A stretch of 64,000 nucleotides of DNA from an uncultured bacterium (GTDB taxonomy: Bacteria; Acidobacteriota; HRBIN11; JAKEFK01), in NCBI GenBank assembly GCA_963777505.1, contig CAVZQN010000004.1:1575814-1639813 (forward strand). The letters are read 5' to 3'. Below, piece after piece: positions 2,852-57,100 of this stretch. The notes beneath the pieces were generated by a model. It worked only from the letters and a program-made list of their open reading frames with translations, made no database searches and was not told where the DNA came from. The stretch's first letter is position 1, and every line of letters starts with the position of its first letter. A program made the translations under genes and the position numbers.

Positions 2852-5319
2852 CTACCCCCCAAATTCCAATCGTCGATCTGCCGGAAGACGATTGTACCCG
2901 TAGTTTCGGCGTATTAACTGTACAAAAAGCAGCACAGCGCATTGCTCTGCCACTCGAAAAGGTGGAAATTGATGCAAGAGTTGCCGGACAAATCGCGGAA
3001 GTTACAGTTCTGCAGTCTTTTCGAAACGAACATCAAGAAGCACTAGAAGCTGTATACATTTTTCCGCTTTCAGGAGGATCAGCAGTCAGCAGTTTCGAAA
3101 TGAAAGTAGGTTCACGTCTCCTTCGCGGCAAAGTGGAAGAGCGCGCACATGCGCGCCAGCAGTATGAAAATGCCATCCAGGATGGAAAGAGAGCAGCGTT
3201 GCTTGAACAAGAACGTGACGATGTTTTCACGCTTCAAGTTGGAAACATACTTCCTGGTGAACATGTTGAAATCAAGATCACCTATTCTGAACGTCTGCCA
3301 TTTTTTGAAAATGGAACGACTGAAATCCGGCTGCCGATGGTTGTTGCTCCAAGGTATGTTCCTGGAAGTCCGCTTGATTCCAGCGGAGTTGGGGATGGAA
3401 TTGAAGAAGATACCGATATTGTTCCAGATGCTTCCAGAATTTCTCCACCACGGTTGGCGAAAGGTTTTGATCCAAAAGTAGGCCTCAACATTCAGGTTGA
3501 ACTTTTGAGCGATGCAGCGATTCGAGAACTATCCTGCTCGCAACATGCGACCCGTACTTCAAATTCAGGAGGCAACGGAATCACTGTTTCGCTTTCCAGG
3601 ACCGACGAATTACTGAATCGTGATTTTGTGTTGCGATGGAACCTCGGTGAAAACAAAATCCAGACAGTTTTCCAAGGATACAAGTCAGAGCATGGCGATT
3701 ATTATGCGATGTTATCGATCCTTCCTCCGCAACTCGAACATCAATCCATTGCAGGACGTGATGTAGTTTTTATTGTGGATCGATCGGGATCGATGCGCGG
3801 TATAAAAATGGCTTCAGCATCCAAAGCATGTGCGATTTTGCTTTCAACGCTCGGACCCGCGGATCGTTTTGCAATTGCTTGCTTTAACACGGCCGTTAAA
3901 TGGTTTTATCCCAATGGTATGGATGGTCAGCGTTTTCTAACAGCCGATGAATCAGGTTTGAAACGTGGTGAAGCATTCTTGCGTGAAATAACAAGTGAAG
4001 GCGGTACAGAACTCGATCAAGCTCTGGAATCGGGTTTGGAAGTGATTCGCAGACGCAGTGATGACAGTACGCGTGTTCCAGTAGTTGTACTTTTGACCGA
4101 TGGACAAATCTCCGATGAGGCCCGCGTATTATCGCGGATCCAAAAAGAGGTTGGAGGTTCTCGTATTTTTACAGTTGGTATTGATACTGCAGTTAATCAT
4201 GGATTTTTGAGCCGTCTTGCTGCATTAGGAAAAGGAACATCCACATTCGTTGAACCAGGAGCGTCCTTAGATAATGCGCTACGGGCAATTAGCAGAGAAA
4301 TTGGAGCTCCAGTAATTGTAGATGTTAGCCTGAAGGATTTGGATTCAAACATAAATATGGAAACAATTTCACCCGCCCGAATTCCGGATCTATTTGCCGG
4401 ACGCTCCAGCGTCACTTTTTTTCAGATGAAGCAACCGGGGCGCATTCAGATCAATGGAAAATTCAGCGATGGAAGCAATTTCGAACAAACAATTTCTTCA
4501 GAAGTCACTCCGGTATCTGCAATTGCGCATTTGTGGGCTCGCGCACGAGTCAGGGATTTAGAAGATCAGTTCCGGCTCGAAAGTGGTCTGCAAGAGCAGA
4601 CAAAAAAGCAAATTATCGAAATTGCAATTCAGCATACATTACTGACGCGTTTTACAGCATTCGTAGTTGTTGATGAAAGCGAAGTTGTAAATCAGGATGG
4701 AACTCGAAGAAAAATTGTTCAACCAGTAGAAATGCCGGCCCAATGGGAAATGGATATGGGTTCTTCAATGCATATCACTGGAGCCATGGCGATGATGTCT
4801 TGTCCGCCGCCGCCGCAAGAAGCACGTGCTTCAGCACCAGTAGCGATGATGCAATTTGATGAAGGAACCAGACCTTCATCTTTATTGAAAGGGCTCTTCC
4901 GTAAACATCGCCGCGATGTGGATCCAAAACAGAAGCCTGCAGAATCAAAAGCGTTGAAAGATGCGGTCAAAGATTTTATGAATGCATTCGACAGCGTACA
5001 AAAATCCATAGAGTCAGGGCAGGTACCTTCAGGGAAACAACTTGAAAAGACACACAAGCAACTAATCAAGCTGATGACGGAGAGTGGTGAATATTCAGCG
5101 ATCAGACGTTTGCTGACTAGTATGGTCACAGAACTATTGACAGCTTTGCGAAGTCCAGGAATTGAAGTGTCAGCTTTGCGGAATATCTTGAATCAGAATA
5201 AGAAAACGATTGATGAAGCCTTTCGCGAAGTAAATGCAACGACAGCCGGCCCATTTCTGGGAATCAACCATTTGATCTCTGCGTCTTTGCGGTTTGTTGG
5301 CGAATTCTGTTACACTTGA
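2848..5319 (+). CDS. VIT-domain plus von Willebrand factor type A (vWA) domain protein, 823 aa, with Met/Pro-rich linker and C-terminal helical domain
   Basis: vWA MIDAS motif D-x-S-x-S in VVFIVDRSGSMRG, downstream LLTDGQISD, and TAFVVVDESEV motif typical of VIT-vWA proteins; N-terminal ~250 aa VIT-like; translationally coupled to the upstream HTH gene. Confidence 0.7.
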   Translation: MTTPQIPIVDLPEDDCTRSFGVLTVQKAAQRIALPLEKVEIDARVAGQIAEVTVLQSFRNEHQEALEAVYIFPLSGGSAVSSFEMKVGSRLLRGKVEERAHARQQYENAIQDGKRAALLEQERDDVFTLQVGNILPGEHVEIKITYSERLPFFENGTTEIRLPMVVAPRYVPGSPLDSSGVGDGIEEDTDIVPDASRISPPRLAKGFDPKVGLNIQVELLSDAAIRELSCSQHATRTSNSGGNGITVSLSRTDELLNRDFVLRWNLGENKIQTVFQGYKSEHGDYYAMLSILPPQLEHQSIAGRDVVFIVDRSGSMRGIKMASASKACAILLSTLGPADRFAIACFNTAVKWFYPNGMDGQRFLTADESGLKRGEAFLREITSEGGTELDQALESGLEVIRRRSDDSTRVPVVVLLTDGQISDEARVLSRIQKEVGGSRIFTVGIDTAVNHGFLSRLAALGKGTSTFVEPGASLDNALRAISREIGAPVIVDVSLKDLDSNINMETISPARIPDLFAGRSSVTFFQMKQPGRIQINGKFSDGSNFEQTISSEVTPVSAIAHLWARARVRDLEDQFRLESGLQEQTKKQIIEIAIQHTLLTRFTAFVVVDESEVVNQDGTRRKIVQPVEMPAQWEMDMGSSMHITGAMAMMSCPPPPQEARASAPVAMMQFDEGTRPSSLLKGLFRKHRRDVDPKQKPAESKALKDAVKDFMNAFDSVQKSIESGQVPSGKQLEKTHKQLIKLMTESGEYSAIRRLLTSMVTELLTALRSPGIEVSALRNILNQNKKTIDEAFREVNATTAGPFLGINHLISASLRFVGEFCYT

Positions 5320-5378: not shown

Positions 5379-8300
5379 ATGCCTGATTACTTGAAAGAAG
5401 CCAGAAAAGCTGAAAAAGAAAAAATCTTTTCGAGAGCGGGCGAATTCTACCGGCTTGCTGGAGAAATCGATTCTGCTGTTGAAATGTACATGAAGGCAGA
5501 AGACTACATTCTCGCCGCTGGTCTCATGGAACAAAAAGGCAACTGGAGTGCTGCTGCAAATCTGTATGAACGCGGCAGACAATACCGCGATGCTGCCAAG
5601 ATTTACGAAAAAATTAAAGACTATCGTTCCGCCTTTTCAATGTATGAAAAGATCAACGATTATCCACGTGCTTCAGAAATGGCGGAAAAAGCGGAAGATT
5701 ATTTCAAAGCTGCTGTTATGGCTGAAGAAGCAAAAACATTGCAACGTGCAGCACAACTTTATATTCAAGCCAACCAATATCCACAAGCTGCAAGAATTCA
5801 TTACAAATTATTGCAACAACTTGTCGATCTCACTGAAAAAAGGTTTTTTCCAGATTATGAGGCGCAACTCGCGAAGCATGCGAATACAACGGCGATGCTT
5901 TACGAACGGATTAATGATCATGCAAAAGCAGCCTACTGTTATCAACTTGCAAGAAATCATAAGAAAGCTGCAGAGTCGTATCTTGCAGATCAGAAACCTG
6001 AGAAAGCTGCAGAGATCTATCACCAGCTAAAGAGCTACAACAAAGCATTTGAGATTTTGTCAGGACTCACTGACGTTTCAAACAAGCCTCTTTTCGCGGA
6101 TGTTTGTTACCAGTTAAAGAAATTTGATAAAGCTGCAACTTTATTTCAGCAGTGCGGAAATCTTGGCCGCGCTGCTGATGCCTGTGAACAGGCAAAGCTT
6201 TATAACATCGCAGCTAAGATTTATGAAGAACTAGGAAATTTCAAACGTGCTGCAGAAATGTGTTTGAAGGCAAATAATAAGATTCGAGCGGCTGAACTTT
6301 ATGAAAAGACAGGAAACTTCGGCAACTCCGCAATTTTGTATCAGCAGTCCGGACAAAATGAAAAGGCATTGGAAAGCTATCTTGCGATCGGGCGAAGAAT
6401 TCCTGCCGCCAAAATCGCTCTTCAAATAAAAGATGAAGATAGAGCTATCTTTTTGCTTCAGGCAATTAATCCAATGGAAGAAGAATATAGAGATGCTTGT
6501 GCACTTCTTGGTGTAATTTTCGCTGAAAGAGGAATGAGTTCAGCGGCTCAGCGCAAGTTCGAAGAAGCATTGGAACGCCCCACGCTTACGAAGACAAATT
6601 TGGACATCTATTTTGATCTTGCGATGCAGCAGGAAAAAATGGGGATGCGTGCAGAAGCGGCCGACTTGTATGAGCGGATTCTTTCTGTGGATTTTTCGCA
6701 CAAGGAAGCTTCACGCCGCCTTGAAGAGTTACGAAGATCGGCTGTTTACCATATTCCGGATACATTTTACGTGCCCCAGCCTTCAGAAAGTGTCGAAAAC
6801 ATTCAGACATCCGGACAACCTCGAATTGTGGCATCGCGTTATGAGTTGGTGGAAGAAATGATTCATGATGCTTCGGGGAAAGTATATAAAGCCAGCGATC
6901 AATTTTTTCAACGTCCTGTCATGATCCGGATTCTTCCGAAGCAGGATCAAAATCTTACACAGGTGATTCTAAAATGCACTCAACTTTCATCGGCACTCAA
7001 CCACAATAACATTCTCGCAATTTATGATGGTGGGAAAGATAAAGATGATTACTTTGTTTGTACCGAATATGTAGACGGTCAAACTCTGCGGCAGTATCTT
7101 TCGGATCATTCTTTGAATATTCAGGAAGTTGTTCAAATTGCGCAACAGATTATTTTGGCCCTTGCGTATGTTCATAAGAAGGGTCTAATTCATGGAAATC
7201 TGACGCCGGAAAATATTTATATTGCAGCCGACAAAAGTGTAAAGGTCACTAATTTTGGAAATCTTGCAGTATGGGAAAAACAAAATGCGGCTGTTGTTAA
7301 GCAATACTTAAGTCCGGAACAGCTTACGGATCAGACTTCTGATGAGCGAAGTGACGTCTATTCGTTCGGGATTATTTTGTATGAGCTTGCCTATGGCAAT
7401 CCTCCTTTTTCGGGCGTGGATGTAGAACAACAACATTTGAGTGCTCTTCCTGTATTTGAAGAAACTCCTTTACACACTGTCCCGGATTTTCTGATCCGAA
7501 TTATGAAGAAGAGCCTTGCAAAGGATCGAAACAGACGTTACGCAAATGCGGATGAAATCCAAAATGAGTTTGAAACACCGGGAATCACACCAGGCGTTGT
7601 TATCAATGGCAGATATGAAATTGTCCGTGAACTTGGCGAAGGCGGTATGGGAAATGTTTATCAAGCGCGGGACAGGGACCTGGATGAAATCGTTGCATTA
7701 AAAATGTTGAAGGGGGAGATCGGCGGTGATCCTGATATGCTTCAACGTTTCATTCGTGAAATCAAAGTCGCAAGAATGATTGCTCATCCAAATGTAGTAC
7801 GCGTTTTTGATACCGGGACATACGAAGCAAATCGATACATAACGATGGAATATATCGATGGCATCAGTTTTGACCGATGGATCGATCAATCTAGAGAGAT
7901 CGATCTGAAAACTCGACTCAACATTTTGTTGAAAATCATTCAAGGCGTTCAAGCCGCTCATGCCCGTGGCATCGTTCATCGTGATTTGAAGCCTCAAAAT
8001 ATTTTGATTGATTCCGACTTCATTCCTCACATTCTCGATTTTGGAATTTCACGAGTACGAACTCACAAAGATAGTTCAACGACAGCCAAAATTGTACTTG
8101 GTTCACCAAAATATACATCTCCGGAACAAATCAGCGGACAGGAGGCGGATTATCGCAGCGATATTTATTCGCTTGGAGTCCTTACTTTCTACATGTTAAC
8201 GTTTCAAGAACCTTTCAGCGGAGATGATGTCCAGAGTATTTTGATGAAACACCTAACTTTGGAGCCTGCTTCGCCCCGCCACTTGAATCCTGAAATTCCA

Positions 8301-8420
8301 CTCTGGCTCGAAGATATTGTTCTTCGCGCGTTACGAAAAGATCCCGCCAAACGTTTCGAAAACCTCGATGAAATGCTCGCCGACCTCAAATTCGGCATCG
8401 ACTTCAAGCAAAACTCATAA
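5379..8420 (+). CDS. Multidomain signalling protein: N-terminal array of TPR-like ~19-residue helical repeats, a degenerate (pseudo)kinase domain, and a canonical Ser/Thr protein kinase domain (1013 aa)
   Basis: C-terminal domain has LGEGGMGNVY, VALKML, HRDLKPQNIL, DFGISR, SPKYTSPE. The preceding domain has VMIRIL (K to R), HGNLTPENIY (HRD to HGN) and TNFG (DFG to NFG). N-terminal 350 aa are periodic Y-x-x-A-A-x-x-Y-E-K-type repeats. Confidence 0.8.
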   Translation: MPDYLKEARKAEKEKIFSRAGEFYRLAGEIDSAVEMYMKAEDYILAAGLMEQKGNWSAAANLYERGRQYRDAAKIYEKIKDYRSAFSMYEKINDYPRASEMAEKAEDYFKAAVMAEEAKTLQRAAQLYIQANQYPQAARIHYKLLQQLVDLTEKRFFPDYEAQLAKHANTTAMLYERINDHAKAAYCYQLARNHKKAAESYLADQKPEKAAEIYHQLKSYNKAFEILSGLTDVSNKPLFADVCYQLKKFDKAATLFQQCGNLGRAADACEQAKLYNIAAKIYEELGNFKRAAEMCLKANNKIRAAELYEKTGNFGNSAILYQQSGQNEKALESYLAIGRRIPAAKIALQIKDEDRAIFLLQAINPMEEEYRDACALLGVIFAERGMSSAAQRKFEEALERPTLTKTNLDIYFDLAMQQEKMGMRAEAADLYERILSVDFSHKEASRRLEELRRSAVYHIPDTFYVPQPSESVENIQTSGQPRIVASRYELVEEMIHDASGKVYKASDQFFQRPVMIRILPKQDQNLTQVILKCTQLSSALNHNNILAIYDGGKDKDDYFVCTEYVDGQTLRQYLSDHSLNIQEVVQIAQQIILALAYVHKKGLIHGNLTPENIYIAADKSVKVTNFGNLAVWEKQNAAVVKQYLSPEQLTDQTSDERSDVYSFGIILYELAYGNPPFSGVDVEQQHLSALPVFEETPLHTVPDFLIRIMKKSLAKDRNRRYANADEIQNEFETPGITPGVVINGRYEIVRELGEGGMGNVYQARDRDLDEIVALKMLKGEIGGDPDMLQRFIREIKVARMIAHPNVVRVFDTGTYEANRYITMEYIDGISFDRWIDQSREIDLKTRLNILLKIIQGVQAAHARGIVHRDLKPQNILIDSDFIPHILDFGISRVRTHKDSSTTAKIVLGSPKYTSPEQISGQEADYRSDIYSLGVLTFYMLTFQEPFSGDDVQSILMKHLTLEPASPRHLNPEIPLWLEDIVLRALRKDPAKRFENLDEMLADLKFGIDFKQNS

Positions 8421-8482
8421 GATTTTAGATTTCAGATCACTGATTTCAGATTGAAATTGAAAAATTGAAGATTGCTAGAGCG
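8421..8482. repeat. Terminal inverted repeat R1 of IVS-like cassette (GATTTCAGATT-rich, ~55 bp)
   Basis: gattttagatttcagatcactgatttcagattgaaattgaaaaattgaagattg; its reverse complement matches R2 (8876-8935) at about 85% identity. Confidence 0.75.
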
Positions 8483-8487
8483 TTTTT

Positions 8488-8841
8488 TTATTTCGATAGC
8501 TTCGATGTTTTTATGGAAGATACGAATATGGAAACAAGTTCATTTCCCTCAACAATTAATGATCTTAATAAAGACTCATTAAGGATTTTGCATTCGATAA
8601 TAATCTCCATCCAATAAAGAGATTCATCCGCTTCTTCCAAAACAATTCCCAGTTTTGAGATAAAATCCACTTTTGAACGTGCTCGACAAGCTGCACGATA
8701 ATTTGCTCCCACGGACGTTCCGGACCGAAAAAGCTGATCACCCACGCGTCGTGCTTCATATGAATTCGGCAGAGCTCTGCATAGTCTTAGGATGCGCTTC
8801 CCGTATTCTTTTGTTCGTCTCTTCATCTCTTGTTGATTCAT
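8488..8841 (-). CDS. Four-helix-bundle protein (TIGR02436; 23S rRNA intervening-sequence protein family)
   Basis: SGTSVGANYRAACRARSKVDFISKLGIVLEEADESLYWMEII matches the family signature; start moved to internal ATG (8839-8841) because the track ORF 5' end runs into repeat R2; flanked by inverted repeats R1/R2. Confidence 0.75.
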   Translation of the reverse strand: MNQQEMKRRTKEYGKRILRLCRALPNSYEARRVGDQLFRSGTSVGANYRAACRARSKVDFISKLGIVLEEADESLYWMEIIIECKILNESLLRSLIVEGNELVSIFVSSIKTSKLSK

Positions 8842-8875
8842 ATACCAACCTTCTCTCAATCTTTCAATCCTCAAT

Positions 8876-8935
8876 TTCAATCTGAAATCTAGAATCTGAA
8901 ATCTTAAATAATTGAACCGCAAAGTCACGGAGTTC
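8876..8935. repeat. Terminal inverted repeat R2 of IVS-like cassette
   Basis: caatctttcaatcctcaatttcaatctgaaatctagaatctgaaatcttaaataa is the reverse complement of R1. Confidence 0.75.
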
Positions 8936-8952
8936 TTTGCGTCTTTGCGGTT
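8915..8952. repeat. Hairpin formed by two inverted copies of the recurrent motif (AACCGCAAAG ... CTTTGCGGTT, 10-bp stem)
   Basis: aaccgcaaagtcacggagttctttgcgtctttgcggtt read directly; overlaps the 3' end of the DUF2851 CDS. Confidence 0.6.
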
Positions 8953-10388
8953 GGATTAAATTCGCAGCGGGAGCAGGAAGCATCGCGGTTATCGCAAAAG
9001 TCGTAAAAGAAGTGATGGAGCGCTTGTTGCCGGTGTGCGCTGTCAATCATGTTTCTTGCTTTCTCCGGGCTCCCAAACATCCGATGAACCATCAGACGTG
9101 TAATGCTGTTGTTAGGCAGTTTTGGATGACGTCTATAGATTGCATGGAGAGAATCTTCGAGCCCTCGTTGTGAAGTGAGCTCTGCATGCGCTAACAACAA
9201 TGGAAGCACGACATTTACGATCAGGATCCGCGCGCGATCCTTTCCGATCAATCTGCGAGGTGCGCTGAATTTGTGCTTATCGAATTGATAATGGTATGAC
9301 CAATACAAATGCGATGGACGTCCAAACAAGGCATTCCACGATTTGAGTATTTCGCGAATTCCGCGAGGCGATGGAAAAGGTTCGCCGATAGGGTGGAGTA
9401 ACAATGGAATGATTTGTCCAGAATGGTAATGAAAAAATGATGCAACAGCAGTGAGCCTGCGTGCAGGGAAGTTTGCCGGACGTGTACTTGAGGGATACCA
9501 ACAAAACCCGGTGAGTATTCGCGATTGAAAATGGGATTCGTGTTTATGCCAGTATTGAAAAAGCTCGTTTAGATACCACGACGTTTCAGGATCTTCCGGA
9601 GTTAAACGGATCTGTGATAAGTCTTCGATCAATCCCGCAGTACCAAGTAATATCGCAGCCATTGAATCGATACCGCGCCGACCCGCAAAATTGTAATGCA
9701 TCAATTCATCAATCGGAATTCTTTGGGCAAGCTCACGGAATGCATATCGAGATTGCTTATATCCCATGCCTTCCATGATGCCTTCATAAAAAGCTTGCTG
9801 AAATGTTTGCGATCGAAGTGCCGTCAGATATCGTTCCTTTTTTCGGCGCATTCGAAGATCGCCTGCTGAATCCAATATTCGTGTGATGGATAGTTCATCA
9901 TGCTCTTCCAGAAATCGTCTGCAAAGATGTACTTTGCTTCCTGCATGAAATGGAAATTCATGAATCGGCAATCGTGTCTGCAGCAGCCTTAACTCTTCCA
10001 TCAATGAATCTTTTAATTCCAGTTCAGGAACCGACTCTCCATTCTGTTTGATACATTCCGCGCCTGTGCTGTACAAAACAACGTGAAGAACAACGCTGTT
10101 GTAACGTGGATCCAGATGGTGCCGGTGTTGATACCATTCACCGCTGCTTAAATGAATTTCAACATCACCACACATCCGTTTTCCATCAACAAACAATTCT
10201 GCATTTCGAAAGTCCGGGCCTGCTTCAAGATTCCACCAACCTGGCGATGATATCGATAACGCTGTGCCGTTCAGGCGCAATTGTTTCCGGAAGAGTTGTT
10301 CAGACCAGATGCAATGGATTAAACGTTCAAGGACGCGTTCGCGTCCACCATAGGGGTTTTGCGATTCGCAGACGAGATAAGGTTCCAT
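8925..10388 (-). CDS. DUF2851-family protein (487 aa)
   Basis: N-terminal ERLIHCIWSEQLF...PGWWNLEAGPDF...GDVEIHLSSGEWYQHRHHLDPRYNSVVLHVVL pattern recalled for DUF2851; assignment from memory only. Confidence 0.5.
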   Translation of the reverse strand: MEPYLVCESQNPYGGRERVLERLIHCIWSEQLFRKQLRLNGTALSISSPGWWNLEAGPDFRNAELFVDGKRMCGDVEIHLSSGEWYQHRHHLDPRYNSVVLHVVLYSTGAECIKQNGESVPELELKDSLMEELRLLQTRLPIHEFPFHAGSKVHLCRRFLEEHDELSITRILDSAGDLRMRRKKERYLTALRSQTFQQAFYEGIMEGMGYKQSRYAFRELAQRIPIDELMHYNFAGRRGIDSMAAILLGTAGLIEDLSQIRLTPEDPETSWYLNELFQYWHKHESHFQSRILTGFCWYPSSTRPANFPARRLTAVASFFHYHSGQIIPLLLHPIGEPFPSPRGIREILKSWNALFGRPSHLYWSYHYQFDKHKFSAPRRLIGKDRARILIVNVVLPLLLAHAELTSQRGLEDSLHAIYRRHPKLPNNSITRLMVHRMFGSPEKARNMIDSAHRQQALHHFFYDFCDNRDASCSRCEFNPTAKTQRTP

Positions 10389-10469: not shown

Positions 10470-10660
10470 CGGCCGCAATTTCAGATTTCAGATCTTAGAT
10501 TTCAGATTGAAATTGATGATTTTTGGATTTAAGTACAGGTTAATTCTACTTTATGTGAGCAGACCGAATTAAGGCTTAAAAAGAATCTAATAGCTTCTAT
10601 CAATCTTCAATCAAAAATTTCAATCTGAAATCTAAGATCTGAAATCTAAAATCTATTGGA
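10470..10660. mobile_element. MITE-like empty element: inverted repeats R3 (10470-10530) and R4 (10598-10660) of the same GATTTCAGATT family flanking a 76-bp non-coding core
   Basis: 33-bp core caatttcaatctgaaatctaagatctgaaatct is identical between rc(R3) and R4; no ORF between them; sits in the DUF2851 / radical-SAM intergenic region. Confidence 0.6.
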
Positions 10661-12023
10661 CTTGGAGTTTGGCGTAGGAGGGTGAACTGCCGCAGCTTTC
10701 AAACCATTCGAGGCCTTCACACACCATATCAAATTTCAGCCAGTACTGGCCGGGTGAGTTTACGGCGGGAACTTGAAAATCAAGACGCAATGCTTGTCCT
10801 GAAGGAAGAGCCTTTGGAAGCAAAGCACGTCCGAAGTTGCGGTTAATCATGCTACGGTTGCGATCTAACAATGAAATTCCGAGAGTGATATGTCTTCGAT
10901 TCGTGCGTGAAGTGTTTTTCCAGAGTGCCCCGCCGGCATTAAGAATTTCTGCGCTTGTAGTAAACGATTGGCCGGCTTTGACTTTCAATGCTGCAATCTC
11001 CGGACGTATTTCGGCTTTTAATGCTTTTTCGTGGATTGCATTTCCTAAAGCGCTCCAGATTTCATGCTGAATCTTTTCATATTCAGGGCGTCCCGGAACA
11101 AACCTTTCGGAAGCTGAATTTTCAGGATGATCTGTAATTTCCCAGCATAAACGATCGATTCCAAGTTCACCTGCAAGTTTTCGTGCAAGATCCATCTCTT
11201 CATCAGTGTCGTTCCAACGAAACAAAATGTAACGCCAGTTGATGAACGGCGTATCGGAGTTCAGTTCATGTTTGATTTCCACAAAGCGCTTCAGGATGCG
11301 CATCAATTTATCGAAATCGCCTCCACGCCTGTAACGCACATATGATTCTTGCATGGCCCCATCGATCGAGAAAGTAATTTCATCAATCCCTGATTTCGTA
11401 AGAGCGCGCAGTTTTTCATCCGTGTTTAGCAGCAATCCATTAGTGCTTGTAAAAAGATAAATCTGAGGATATCGAGATTTTGCATATTCGATCATTTCGA
11501 TCGCGCGTGGATGGATGAAACTTTCACCGTAATTAAAGAAGTCAATGCGCTGAAGTCCCGGTCCAAGCTCATCAATTACTTTTGTGAAAGTGTCATAATT
11601 CAAGAGCCGGATCGATCGCGTAAAATGGATTCCATTTTCATGATTGCAACAAGCTTCAAAACAGGAAAGATTGCAGGAGACACAAGGCTCTACGAATAAA
11701 CGCTGAGGCATATAGGCAAGCGAGGTGCCATCAGGTAATTTCACTGCAGGATCGGATGCAACTCCCATCAAGTTGCAATGGGTGCAAAGTACGGGATTAT
11801 TTTTATGCAGACCCTCACGCAATCCACGAAACACCGGACCATTCCAAATTTCTTTAATGCTCAAGATCGATGCATTGCCAGCCGGACGCTTTTTGAATGG
11901 ATCGGCACAACCACAAACGATCGTTCCATCTGACATTAATGTGACCGTCTCCCATGGCCATGTACAAAAGAAACGCTGGCCTGGTTGAAGATCGATTTGA
12001 GAGGGTTCTTCGGTTCCTATCAT
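10653..12023 (-). CDS. Radical-SAM-like protein with N-terminal SPASM-like Cys-rich domain and non-canonical Cys cluster (456 aa)
   Basis: N-terminus FFCTWPWETVTLMSDGTIVCGC...GNASILSIKEIWNGP...CTHCN resembles a SPASM/twitch domain. The core has CVSCNLSCFEACC (not CxxxCxxC) and FNYGESFIHP (GGEP-like). The C-terminal ~100 aa are unassigned. 4-nt overlap with the upstream deacetylase gene. Confidence 0.5.
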   Translation of the reverse strand: MIGTEEPSQIDLQPGQRFFCTWPWETVTLMSDGTIVCGCADPFKKRPAGNASILSIKEIWNGPVFRGLREGLHKNNPVLCTHCNLMGVASDPAVKLPDGTSLAYMPQRLFVEPCVSCNLSCFEACCNHENGIHFTRSIRLLNYDTFTKVIDELGPGLQRIDFFNYGESFIHPRAIEMIEYAKSRYPQIYLFTSTNGLLLNTDEKLRALTKSGIDEITFSIDGAMQESYVRYRRGGDFDKLMRILKRFVEIKHELNSDTPFINWRYILFRWNDTDEEMDLARKLAGELGIDRLCWEITDHPENSASERFVPGRPEYEKIQHEIWSALGNAIHEKALKAEIRPEIAALKVKAGQSFTTSAEILNAGGALWKNTSRTNRRHITLGISLLDRNRSMINRNFGRALLPKALPSGQALRLDFQVPAVNSPGQYWLKFDMVCEGLEWFESCGSSPSYAKLQVQ

Positions 12024-27478: not shown

Positions 27479-28014
27479 TCCACCTATCGAGAAATCTTTA
27501 TTTTTACTGGTTTAAAATAGAACTGATGAAAGAAGATCGTGATGCCATTGCTCTCGCAATTGAACTATTTCATAAAGCGTATGTGCATCATATGAGTGGT
27601 TATCTTGATGAGGCAATTGAACTTTATAGGGAATCAATTGCAATGTATCCAACGGCTGAAGCATACACATTCCTCGGATGGGCATATAGTTTTCAAGGAA
27701 GATTGGATGAAGCGATTGAGGAATGTAAAAGAGCGATCGAAGTCGATCCTGATTTCGGCAATCCATACAACGATATCGGGGCATATTTAATTGAAAAGGA
27801 ATTGTTCAATGAAGCGATTCCATGGTTGAAACAAGCCACGGAAGCGAAACGATACGAATCCTATCATTTTCCACATTACAATCTTGGGCGTGTATATATT
27901 GCGCAAGGTATGATGAAGCGCGCAATCGAAGAATTTCAAAAAGCGTTAAAAATTGCGCCAAATTACACGCTCGCACGTGATGCATTAGAAGAAACGAGCC
28001 GGCAGATCAATTAA
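27475..28014 (+). CDS. TPR-repeat protein
   Basis: Repeated A-x-x-Y/W-x-G-x-A-Y helical pairs (AEAYTFLGWAYSFQGRLDEAIE... ); GTG start overlaps the upstream stop. Confidence 0.6.
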   Translation: MIHLSRNLYFYWFKIELMKEDRDAIALAIELFHKAYVHHMSGYLDEAIELYRESIAMYPTAEAYTFLGWAYSFQGRLDEAIEECKRAIEVDPDFGNPYNDIGAYLIEKELFNEAIPWLKQATEAKRYESYHFPHYNLGRVYIAQGMMKRAIEEFQKALKIAPNYTLARDALEETSRQIN

Positions 28015-28095
28015 AGATCAAAAATGAAAGATCAAAGATCAAAAATAAAGATAGAGCTTCATTTTTGATATTTTATTTTTCATTTTTTATTTTAA
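28015..28095. repeat. AT-rich imperfect palindrome with tandem AAAGATCAAA units; probable bidirectional terminator/hairpin
   Basis: aaagatcaaaaatgaaagatcaaagatcaaaaataaagat ... ttcatttttgatattttatttttcatttttt read directly. Confidence 0.4.
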
Positions 28096-48207: not shown

Positions 48208-48270
48208 TTGCTGAAAATATCGGGAGAGCGGGCTGCATGTTTGTTGAGATAAATGATTCTATGGCGTGCG

Positions 48271-48306
48271 CGGAGGCGCGCCCTCCGGACGTAGTCCGGT
48301 TTTAGA
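48271..48306 (+). terminator. bamA terminator: two adjacent hairpins (CGGAGG-CGCGCC-CTCCG and CCGGAC-gta-GTCCGG) followed by TTTTAG
   Basis: Perfect inverted repeats read directly, 64 nt after the bamA stop. A further 12-bp IR TTTAGATTGCAG/CTGCAATCTAAA follows at 48300-48355 upstream of skp. Confidence 0.6.
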
Positions 48307-48381
48307 TTGCAGATTTCAGTTTGAAAAAGTACAATCTAAAAGCTGCAATCTAAAAAATTCAAAGTTGGAGAAAGTAGTTTT

Positions 48382-57039: not shown

Positions 57040-57100
57040 TATTAAGGGATCGCAGACGTCCCGTCTGCATCGGGATCGCGGACATCTTGTCCGCATACCA
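57040..57100. repeat. REP-like element (GCAGACGTCCCGTCTGC + GCGGACATCTTGTCCGC)
   Basis: Read directly between convergent genes. Confidence 0.65.

Follow-up and report, generated by a model that had tools for sequence, protein, structure and literature searches.

Introduction

Intervening sequences (IVSs) that carry an open reading frame (ORF) are found in the 23S rRNA of Leptospira, Coxiella burnetii, Brucella and Haemophilus, at helix 25 or 45, and the protein family in question (S23p / TIGR02436) has thousands of copies in Bacteroidota, Acidobacteriota, Planctomycetota and Cyanobacteria. The role of this protein, the way in which IVSs move and the abundance of tandem heptanucleotide repeats in some bacteria have been puzzles for decades. 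Here we describe a member of this family outside rRNA, in a 64,000-nucleotide stretch (the window) of contig CAVZQN010000004.1 from an uncultured member of the Acidobacteriota. A unit of ~490 bp (element A, positions 8420-8909) carries a four-helix-bundle (4HB) gene on the minus strand, with inverted arms of tandem 7-nt units (heptads) on both sides. On balance, and with real room for doubt, we favor the reading that this unit is a hitch-hiking cassette that lacks a promoter, equivalent in a protein-gene context to the ORF-bearing 23S rRNA IVSs.

In the Coxiella 23S rRNA IVS, two to three GACAGAT heptamers precede the S23p ORF, and RNase III excises the IVS (PMC4990558). The window cassette resembles such IVSs in encoding the same protein family (S23p, PF05635, TIGR02436), in enclosing the ORF within stem-forming terminal inverted repeats, and in placing tandem heptamers directly upstream of the ORF, the number of GACAGAT units in Coxiella being strain-variable (PMC4990558). 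Further likenesses are an orientation co-directional with the host transcript and a dependence on it, a GC content below that of the host, and a sporadic distribution that suggests horizontal transfer (PMC4990558). Unlike an IVS, the window cassette is located at the 3′ end of a protein-coding operon, where two genes converge, and its ORF is intact with a good ribosome-binding site, whereas the Coxiella ORF is decaying and apparently untranslated. The element is thus IVS-like in its working but is not an IVS, as the defining location in 23S rRNA fails.

Two other described systems are pertinent. As with repetitive extragenic palindromic (REP) sequences and the REPIN/RAYT system, a single small gene is flanked by inverted members of a repeat family, and gene-less hairpins occur in intergenic positions, mostly just after genes. 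However, the catalytic residues of RAYT, a Y1 (HUH) transposase, are known, while the 4HB protein has no known catalytic activity; the repeats here consist of heptads in tandem and in variable number, not of a fixed palindrome, and the cassette is common to several phyla. Known heptads comprise GGGAATC in Xanthomonas and GGGGAYT in Nostoc (Rehm 2015), TAACTGA in Beggiatoaceae, cyanobacteria and Bacteroidetes (MacGregor 2015), and also the cyanobacterial short tandemly repeated repetitive (STRR) sequences. Xanthomonas arrays have mostly four units and an average distance of 28 nt to the ORF upstream of them, and form 70 convergent inverted pairs in X. campestris (Xcc). The arrays described below share with these repeats the 7-nt tandem structure, the intergenic position close behind an upstream ORF, a size of mostly ~4 units and a strain-variable unit number; when rotated, the Xanthomonas (GGAATCG) and Nostoc (GGATTGG) units fit the xGAwTxx core of our cassettes. 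Earlier studies read the heptanucleotide repeats as G-quadruplex formers or translational signals, whereas the AGATTTC units of the window are unable to form G-quadruplexes. Neither PMC4679880 nor PMC4692102 mentions the 4HB family, and the terms "S23" and "four-helix" are absent from both texts. Beyond the remark on the Coxiella IVS, no link between PF05635 and heptads was found in a literature search that left subscription journals largely uncovered, so a prior description is possible.

Architecture of the cassette

The only ORF inside the unit is the 4HB gene itself (8488-8841, minus strand), which encodes 117 aa of the TIGR02436 / PF05635 or "23S rRNA intervening sequence protein" family. 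Relative to the gene, the 5′ arm (8840-8909, minus strand) carries the heptads AGATTTC/AGATTCT/AGATTTC/AGATTGA/AATTGAG and more, and the 3′ arm (8420-8491, minus strand) consists of GAAATCT-type heptads as read on the gene's strand. The units are of AGATTTC type (AGATTTT, AGATTTC, AGATCAC, TGATTTC, AGATTGA, AATTGAA and others), and Tandem Repeats Finder (TRF) reports period 7 at 8420-8452 and 8879-8909. When 8422-8491 is aligned with 8840-8909, 53 of 70 columns are complementary (76%), including a core of 18 nt at 94%, and the local inverted-repeat score of 36 compares with a mean of 9.5 (sd 1.6) and a maximum of 19 for shuffled sequences. A first-pass annotation of this DNA had already likened the bracketing repeats to those of ORF-bearing 23S rRNA IVSs, and the arms stand well above shuffles; its estimate of ~55 bp at ~85% identity was roughly right for the core.

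The outer end of the 3′ arm directly abuts the TAA stop (8418-8420) of a convergent kinase gene, and its inner end overlaps the 4HB stop codon. At the other side, an AGAAGG ribosome-binding site (8854-8849) lies within the inner end of the 5′ arm, 7 nt before the ATG, and the stop codon of the co-directional upstream gene, which encodes a DUF2851 protein, lies 15 nt from the arm and 83 nt from the ATG. The unit that had been delimited earlier as 8421-8935 is real, with true limits that lie slightly inside (8420-8909), and of the two stop codons between which it was said to be precisely inserted, that of the kinase does abut it while that of DUF2851 stands off. That annotation saw the cassette but missed the 7-nt periodicity, the co-directional link to DUF2851 and a gene-less copy at 10478-10652 (see below).

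The GC content of the cassette is 36.5%, compared with 43.8% for the window. Its predicted transcript folds into a long terminal stem (-150.7 kcal/mol, z = -5.4). A promoter scan found no sigma-70-like promoter upstream of the 4HB ORF, and an Rfam scan of the window gave no rRNA and no RNA family at gathering score. The arms had also been proposed to double as a bidirectional terminator; this suggestion was not upheld, as a scan detected no terminator-like site at the arms, whose stems are A+T-rich and lack both a G+C-rich stem and a T-run.

The four-helix-bundle protein

Comparison with 29 aligned homologues identifies the ATG at 8841 as the genuine start, giving the N-terminus MNQQEMKRRTKEY, and rules out the GTG at 8928, which had been given as the start in the ORF list. 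The family identity proposed from the bare sequence was confirmed. The protein scores 88.5 bits against TIGR02436 (cutoff 24) and 59.3 bits against PF05635 (cutoff 33.8), its sole Pfam match, and phmmer matches it to PDB entry 2RLD (BT_0352) with an E-value of 1.4e-19. The AlphaFold2 model (pLDDT 95.9) has four helices (3-23, 28-52, 57-83 and 90-115), and Foldseek ranks 2RLD first (TM 0.84-0.91), followed by 2GSC, which is Xcc0516 (TM ~0.8), and then by Avd, the accessory subunit of diversity-generating retroelements (DGRs). The 2RLD entry contains five chains, and Xcc0516 is a homopentameric toroid according to work cited in PMC4990558. More than 7,900 homologues were found, and homologues at 60-78% identity occur across different phyla. 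With a median clade dN/dS of 0.10 (21 pairs), the 4HB protein is under purifying selection and is maintained intact. Identity as a defense or phage protein was considered and rejected, there being no PADLOC match and no PHROG match.

The structural ranking raises the question of whether the 4HB protein is itself an Avd subunit and the repeats are template or variable-region features of a DGR. Avd of the Bordetella phage BPP-1 is likewise a four-helix-bundle subunit of a homopentamer in a nucleic-acid/protein complex, the folds resemble each other (4DWL, 8UB7), and PF05635 is the Avd-like Pfam family (PMC10053308). Avd is a distant relative by sequence and fold, however, with ~12% identity in the fold alignment, and 2RLD and 2GSC are much closer on both counts. 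In the immediate neighborhood the genes encode a kinase, DUF2851 and a radical-SAM protein, with no adjacent reverse transcriptase, and the repeats consist of tandem units of 7 nt rather than of a paired template and variable region. We regard a DGR origin as extremely improbable.

The cassette is a discrete unit in unrelated contexts

Cassette and arms are conserved between genomes as one discrete unit, in unrelated contexts. Window positions 8904-8422 align over ~496 nt with locus L224 (1933-2421) at 72.6% DNA identity and with locus L223 at 72.7%, and in both cases homology starts and stops at the outer arm ends, near 8904-8914 and at 8422. The 5′ arm is homologous to the 5′ arms of both loci, and the 3′ arm is nearly identical to that of L224. 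The surroundings are unrelated: in L224 the cassette lies between a glycosyltransferase gene and aroK/aroA, and in L223 it is accompanied by AlkZ-related and toxin-antitoxin genes. Other loci yield the same picture, in that L125 and L127 have only ~440 nt in common (the gene plus its arm, 87% identity) and four more pairs are likewise cassette-limited, as opposed to L125 and L131, which are syntenic over 1.8 kb.

The comparison with relatives that had been suggested at the outset points in the same direction. The deacetylase / radical-SAM / DUF2851 operon is kept in L201 (DUF2851 83% identical), L202 and L203 (64%). In these three loci the gap between the radical-SAM and DUF2851 genes, which in the window holds the gene-less element B, measures 68, 60 and 108 nt, respectively, and lacks the element; nor does a 4HB gene follow DUF2851 in any of them. 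A clean empty site for element A was sought in L201, whose DUF2851 ortholog is the closest, and rejected, the downstream gene there being a different one, so that what is seen is absence of the cassette rather than a precise empty kinase/DUF2851 junction. Homology that is limited to the unit, unrelated flanks, gene-less copies and absence in relatives are together in keeping with the behavior of a small mobile element, as had been supposed, and genome comparisons of this kind suggest that the cassette is mobile as a unit.

The gene-plus-heptad layout recurs across the family

Metagenome contigs were scanned with an alignment of close homologues, giving 80 loci, 66 of them with both flanks. A flanking inverted repeat with a score of at least 20 was present in 50 of the 66, compared with shuffle maxima of 11-17. 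Across 74 flanks, identity at lag 7 was 0.42 on both sides of the gene, whereas other lags gave ~0.24 and the gene body 0.22. The density of period-7 arrays was 3.09 per kb in the 200 nt nearest the gene versus 0.11 per kb elsewhere in the same loci, a 28-fold enrichment. The unit consensus is RGATTKY, with a perfect xGATTxx in 105 of 135 arrays, and unit flavors vary by locus (AGATTTC, GGATTTT, GGATTGC, CGATTTT, TGATTTG, GGAGTGC and others), the two arms of one locus agreeing in flavor, often over 25-32 identical nt. The median arm length is 33 nt, and the arrays are separated from the ATG by ~28 nt and from the stop by ~27 nt; a count of 4-5 units is the most frequent, both upstream (37 of 62 arrays) and downstream (40 of 64).

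More distant branches retain this organization. Viral contigs have the same layout with TGATTTT and GGATTGC units and, at 43% protein identity, with GAACGTA, AATGAAT and AACGAAT units. On one 42.6 kb IMG/VR contig (L209 and L210), two 4HB genes are found with GAACGTA / AATGAAT heptads beside G+C-rich hairpins; the two arrays of L209 are direct, not inverted. The BT_0352 clade, ~36% identical to the window protein, has inverted AATTGAC/AATTGTC arrays, located in Bacteroidaceae at araD-4HB-araA and aminotransferase-4HB-DAHP synthase, and its unit number varies between strains (L214 differs from L216). These BT_0352-type cassettes (L214-L220, ~1434-1933) thus sit in the arabinose operon or between the aminotransferase and DAHP synthase/chorismate mutase genes; the heptad array of L217 extends over the final codons and stop of the gene that precedes it. 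In Anaerolineae the BT_0352 clade occurs in an hsdM-hsdS-4HB-hsdR arrangement, L221 and L222 carrying an AATTGAC-type cassette (1472-1854) inside a type I restriction-modification operon, with hsdS on one side and hsdR on the other. XCC0516, the crystallized pentamer, is preceded by four GGGAATC-type units, which are repeat #15 of Rehm et al. and in X. campestris lie 6 nt after the co-directional bccP and overlap the XCC0516 start (PMC4692102 supplement). The gene with inverted heptads is therefore present in every branch of the family that was sampled, with clade-specific units. rRNA probes found no true rRNA match on the 4HB loci, and a 16S-like match in L150 was not confirmed by Rfam.

Gene-less copies and the distribution of the repeat

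The repeats are not unique to the cassette. In the window, AGATTTCAGATT occurs 13 times with at most one mismatch, versus 1.09 expected. The nearest copy, element B (10478-10652), is a gene-less hairpin with 44-nt arms (10478-10521 / 10609-10652) that are 93% complementary and enclose 87 nt. All four arms of elements A and B align over ~60 nt, including the non-heptad inner part GAAATTGAnGATTGAAGATTGATAGAAG. Element B begins exactly at the stop of a radical-SAM/SPASM gene (10653-12023), which supplies or overlaps the TAG at 10653-10655, and on its far side it is adjoined by a small, terminator-like GC hairpin (10477-10461). Derivation of element B from A by deletion was considered and set aside, since the arms alone align and the 87-nt interior has no detectable ORF remnant. 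At permissive E-values, Rfam matches to element B were just plant miRNA-precursor hairpins, far below threshold.

Two further heptad hairpins are present in the window. Element C (28014-28093) is of another flavor, with AAAGATC / AAAAATG units and 37-nt arms at 84%, and fills the whole gap between a TPR gene, from its TAA stop onward, and a short-chain dehydrogenase (SDR) gene. Element D (48300-48355), with AGATTGC/AGATTTC units, 24-nt arms and an 8-nt loop, lies between bamA (Omp85/POTRA) and skp/ompH, and is preceded by a G+C-rich hairpin near 48262-48290.

Species-representative genomes were searched with a pattern of 22 specified bases that fits all four arms of A and B. It matched at least 120 stretches across phyla, versus less than one estimated by chance. 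Among the matches listed, record titles name Acidobacteriota 33 times, Bacteroidota 27, Planctomycetota 20, Verrucomicrobiota 8, Chloroflexota 6, Proteobacteria 5, Cyanobacteria 4, Armatimonadota 3, Firmicutes once and Actinobacteria never, with 13 other or unclassified; about half of the matches listed are plus/minus hairpins with loops of 0-100 nt. One acidobacterial locus, L057, has an AGATTTC-armed 4HB cassette (3417-3924) and, ~3 kb away, a gene-less hairpin of the same flavor (6585-6689), mirroring elements A and B.

Since heptamer simple sequence repeats (SSRs) are over-represented in prokaryotes generally, according to work cited in PMC4692102, the arms could in principle be AT-rich microsatellites, prone to slippage, that lie beside a small ORF by chance. 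Such an artefact is refuted by the 28-fold enrichment of arrays beside 4HB genes, an arm score far above shuffles and the retention of the same arm sequence in L223 and L224, and it fares no better against the number of pattern matches across phyla; we give it almost no credence.

A more serious proposal is that the heptad hairpins are host cis-elements arising from replication slippage (REP-like stabilizers of mRNA 3′ ends, insulators or translational regulators), and that 4HB is a small host gene that regulates them or is regulated by them, with nothing selfish or mobile involved. Solo hairpins and arrays do far outnumber cassettes, they sit just after stop codons between housekeeping genes, as at bamA-skp, and the spacing of Xanthomonas arrays behind their upstream ORFs is similar in kind; a Nostoc preprint reports effects of heptamer repeats on expression, and the protein is subject to strong purifying selection. 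Yet this account sits poorly with DNA homology that is limited to the cassette in unrelated contexts across organisms, with the absence of the elements at syntenic sites of relatives, with a cassette GC content below that of its surroundings, with close homologues (60-78%) in different phyla and with the location of family members inside rRNA genes. We judge it unlikely, though it is the strongest of the competing explanations.

Transcription, mobility and a proposed mechanism

For the hitch-hiking cassette that we favor, the orientation of neighboring genes is relevant. Across the metagenomic loci, the upstream neighbor is co-directional in 52 of 63 cases and the downstream neighbor in 36 of 63 (Fisher p = 0.003), with a median gap of ~68 nt to the co-directional upstream gene, and the Bacteroides-clade examples are all intra-operonic. 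In the window, DUF2851 is probably the host gene from whose transcription the cassette is expressed. The cassette would be transcribed by read-through from DUF2851, and its arms would pair into a ~65 bp stem in the transcript. By analogy with the Coxiella IVS, RNase III may then cut the arm stem and separate the cassette from the host mRNA, and such cleavage would explain how insertion in operons and rRNA is tolerated. The heptad arrays are candidate recognition sites of a homopentameric protein, one unit per subunit; this prediction draws on the constant 7-nt period combined with a clade-specific sequence, on the 4-5 units per arm and on the fact that arrays abut the ribosome-binding site. 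Binding to heptads would allow the protein to regulate its own expression or to act preferentially in cis, and would tie it to the numerous solo arrays. The unit would spread within and between genomes, probably by a host-assisted mechanism.

Several points weigh against this scheme. Arm mismatches have no G:U bias on the sense strand (59 G:U-type versus 80 A:C-type), and hence provide no positive evidence that selection maintains RNA pairing; most of the mismatches are transversions that fall on the degenerate K and Y positions, a pattern more easily reconciled with a series of recognition units than with a stem preserved by pairing alone. The upstream co-orientation of 83% is barely above a typical bacterial background of ~72% (p = 0.07). 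Among the matches listed, a 4HB gene adjoins just 3-4 of 120 AGATTTC-array loci, which means that most arrays exist without the gene in cis; on the same count, the notion that arrays are mere footprints of neighboring cassettes was rejected. No transposase, mobilizing protein or other catalytic protein was found in association with the unit, and no target-site duplication was found at the junctions of A, B, L223 or L224. Pentamer formation by the window protein, heptad binding, transcription and RNase III cleavage are, moreover, all predictions made from sequence and analogy.

Some of these points bear also on the possibility that the unit is a non-autonomous DNA transposon, similar to a miniature inverted-repeat transposable element (MITE), in which the arrays serve as terminal inverted repeats for a transposase encoded elsewhere and the 4HB gene is a passenger. 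Terminal inverted repeats, a discrete unit and multiple copies, including gene-less derivatives and those in other genomes, are what such an element would show, and the lack of G:U bias is compatible with constraint at the DNA level. The missing target-site duplications speak against it, however, as do an orientation bias relative to the upstream gene and a number of units per arm that varies, unlike the defined ends bound by transposases. Furthermore, the cargo never belongs to another family, and unit sequences differ from one protein clade to the next, which ties the repeats to the 4HB protein and not to an outside transposase. We consider a MITE-like origin improbable, more so than the host cis-element account.

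The occurrence of the gene-plus-heptad layout in all sampled branches suggests a protein partner for the unexplained heptanucleotide repeats. What connects the IVS protein to these repeats is the combination of clade-specific inverted arrays, ~5 units per arm matching the pentameric state, and gene and arms that travel together. In a broader and distinctly more speculative form of the hypothesis, to which we lend only tentative weight, PF05635 homopentamers would be the partners of bacterial heptanucleotide repeats in general (Xanthomonas GGGAATC, Nostoc GGGGAYT, STRR-like and AGATTTC). Each subunit would read one unit of ~5, the genes would be bracketed by their cognate sites, and the protein would drive or stabilize the spread of arrays and hairpins in the manner of REPIN/RAYT but with a non-enzymatic core. 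If true, this would explain the ORFs of 23S rRNA IVSs, the over-representation of heptamers as a class of long SSRs in prokaryotes, and the tracking of protein clade by unit type. With the layout and the unit-level mobility described here, the role of the IVS protein and the source of bacterial heptamer repeats both become amenable to testing. It is also of value for annotation, as cassettes inside operons (ara, aro, type I restriction-modification) alter the 3′ ends of neighboring genes.

Neighboring genes and other features of the window

The left neighbor of the cassette is a TPR and double Ser/Thr-kinase gene (5379-8420, plus strand), convergent with the 4HB gene. Its 1013-aa product has an N-terminal TPR region and two Ser/Thr-kinase-like domains, and gives a partial, sub-cutoff match to the MADS defense kinase MAD6 (291.8 bits versus a cutoff of 460). 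The co-directional upstream neighbor, the DUF2851 gene, occupies 8925-10388 on the minus strand, with its stop codon at 8925-8927. Just upstream of the cassette and spanning this stop, a 16-nt inverted repeat is present at 8909-8958 (CCGCAAAG / CTTTGCGG core, 18-nt spacer), and may be the original 3′ hairpin of the DUF2851 gene. Elsewhere in the window, TRF reports two tandem copies of the 26-nt unit GGGATCGCAGACATCCCGTCCGCATC at 57046-57096, with an 80% match.

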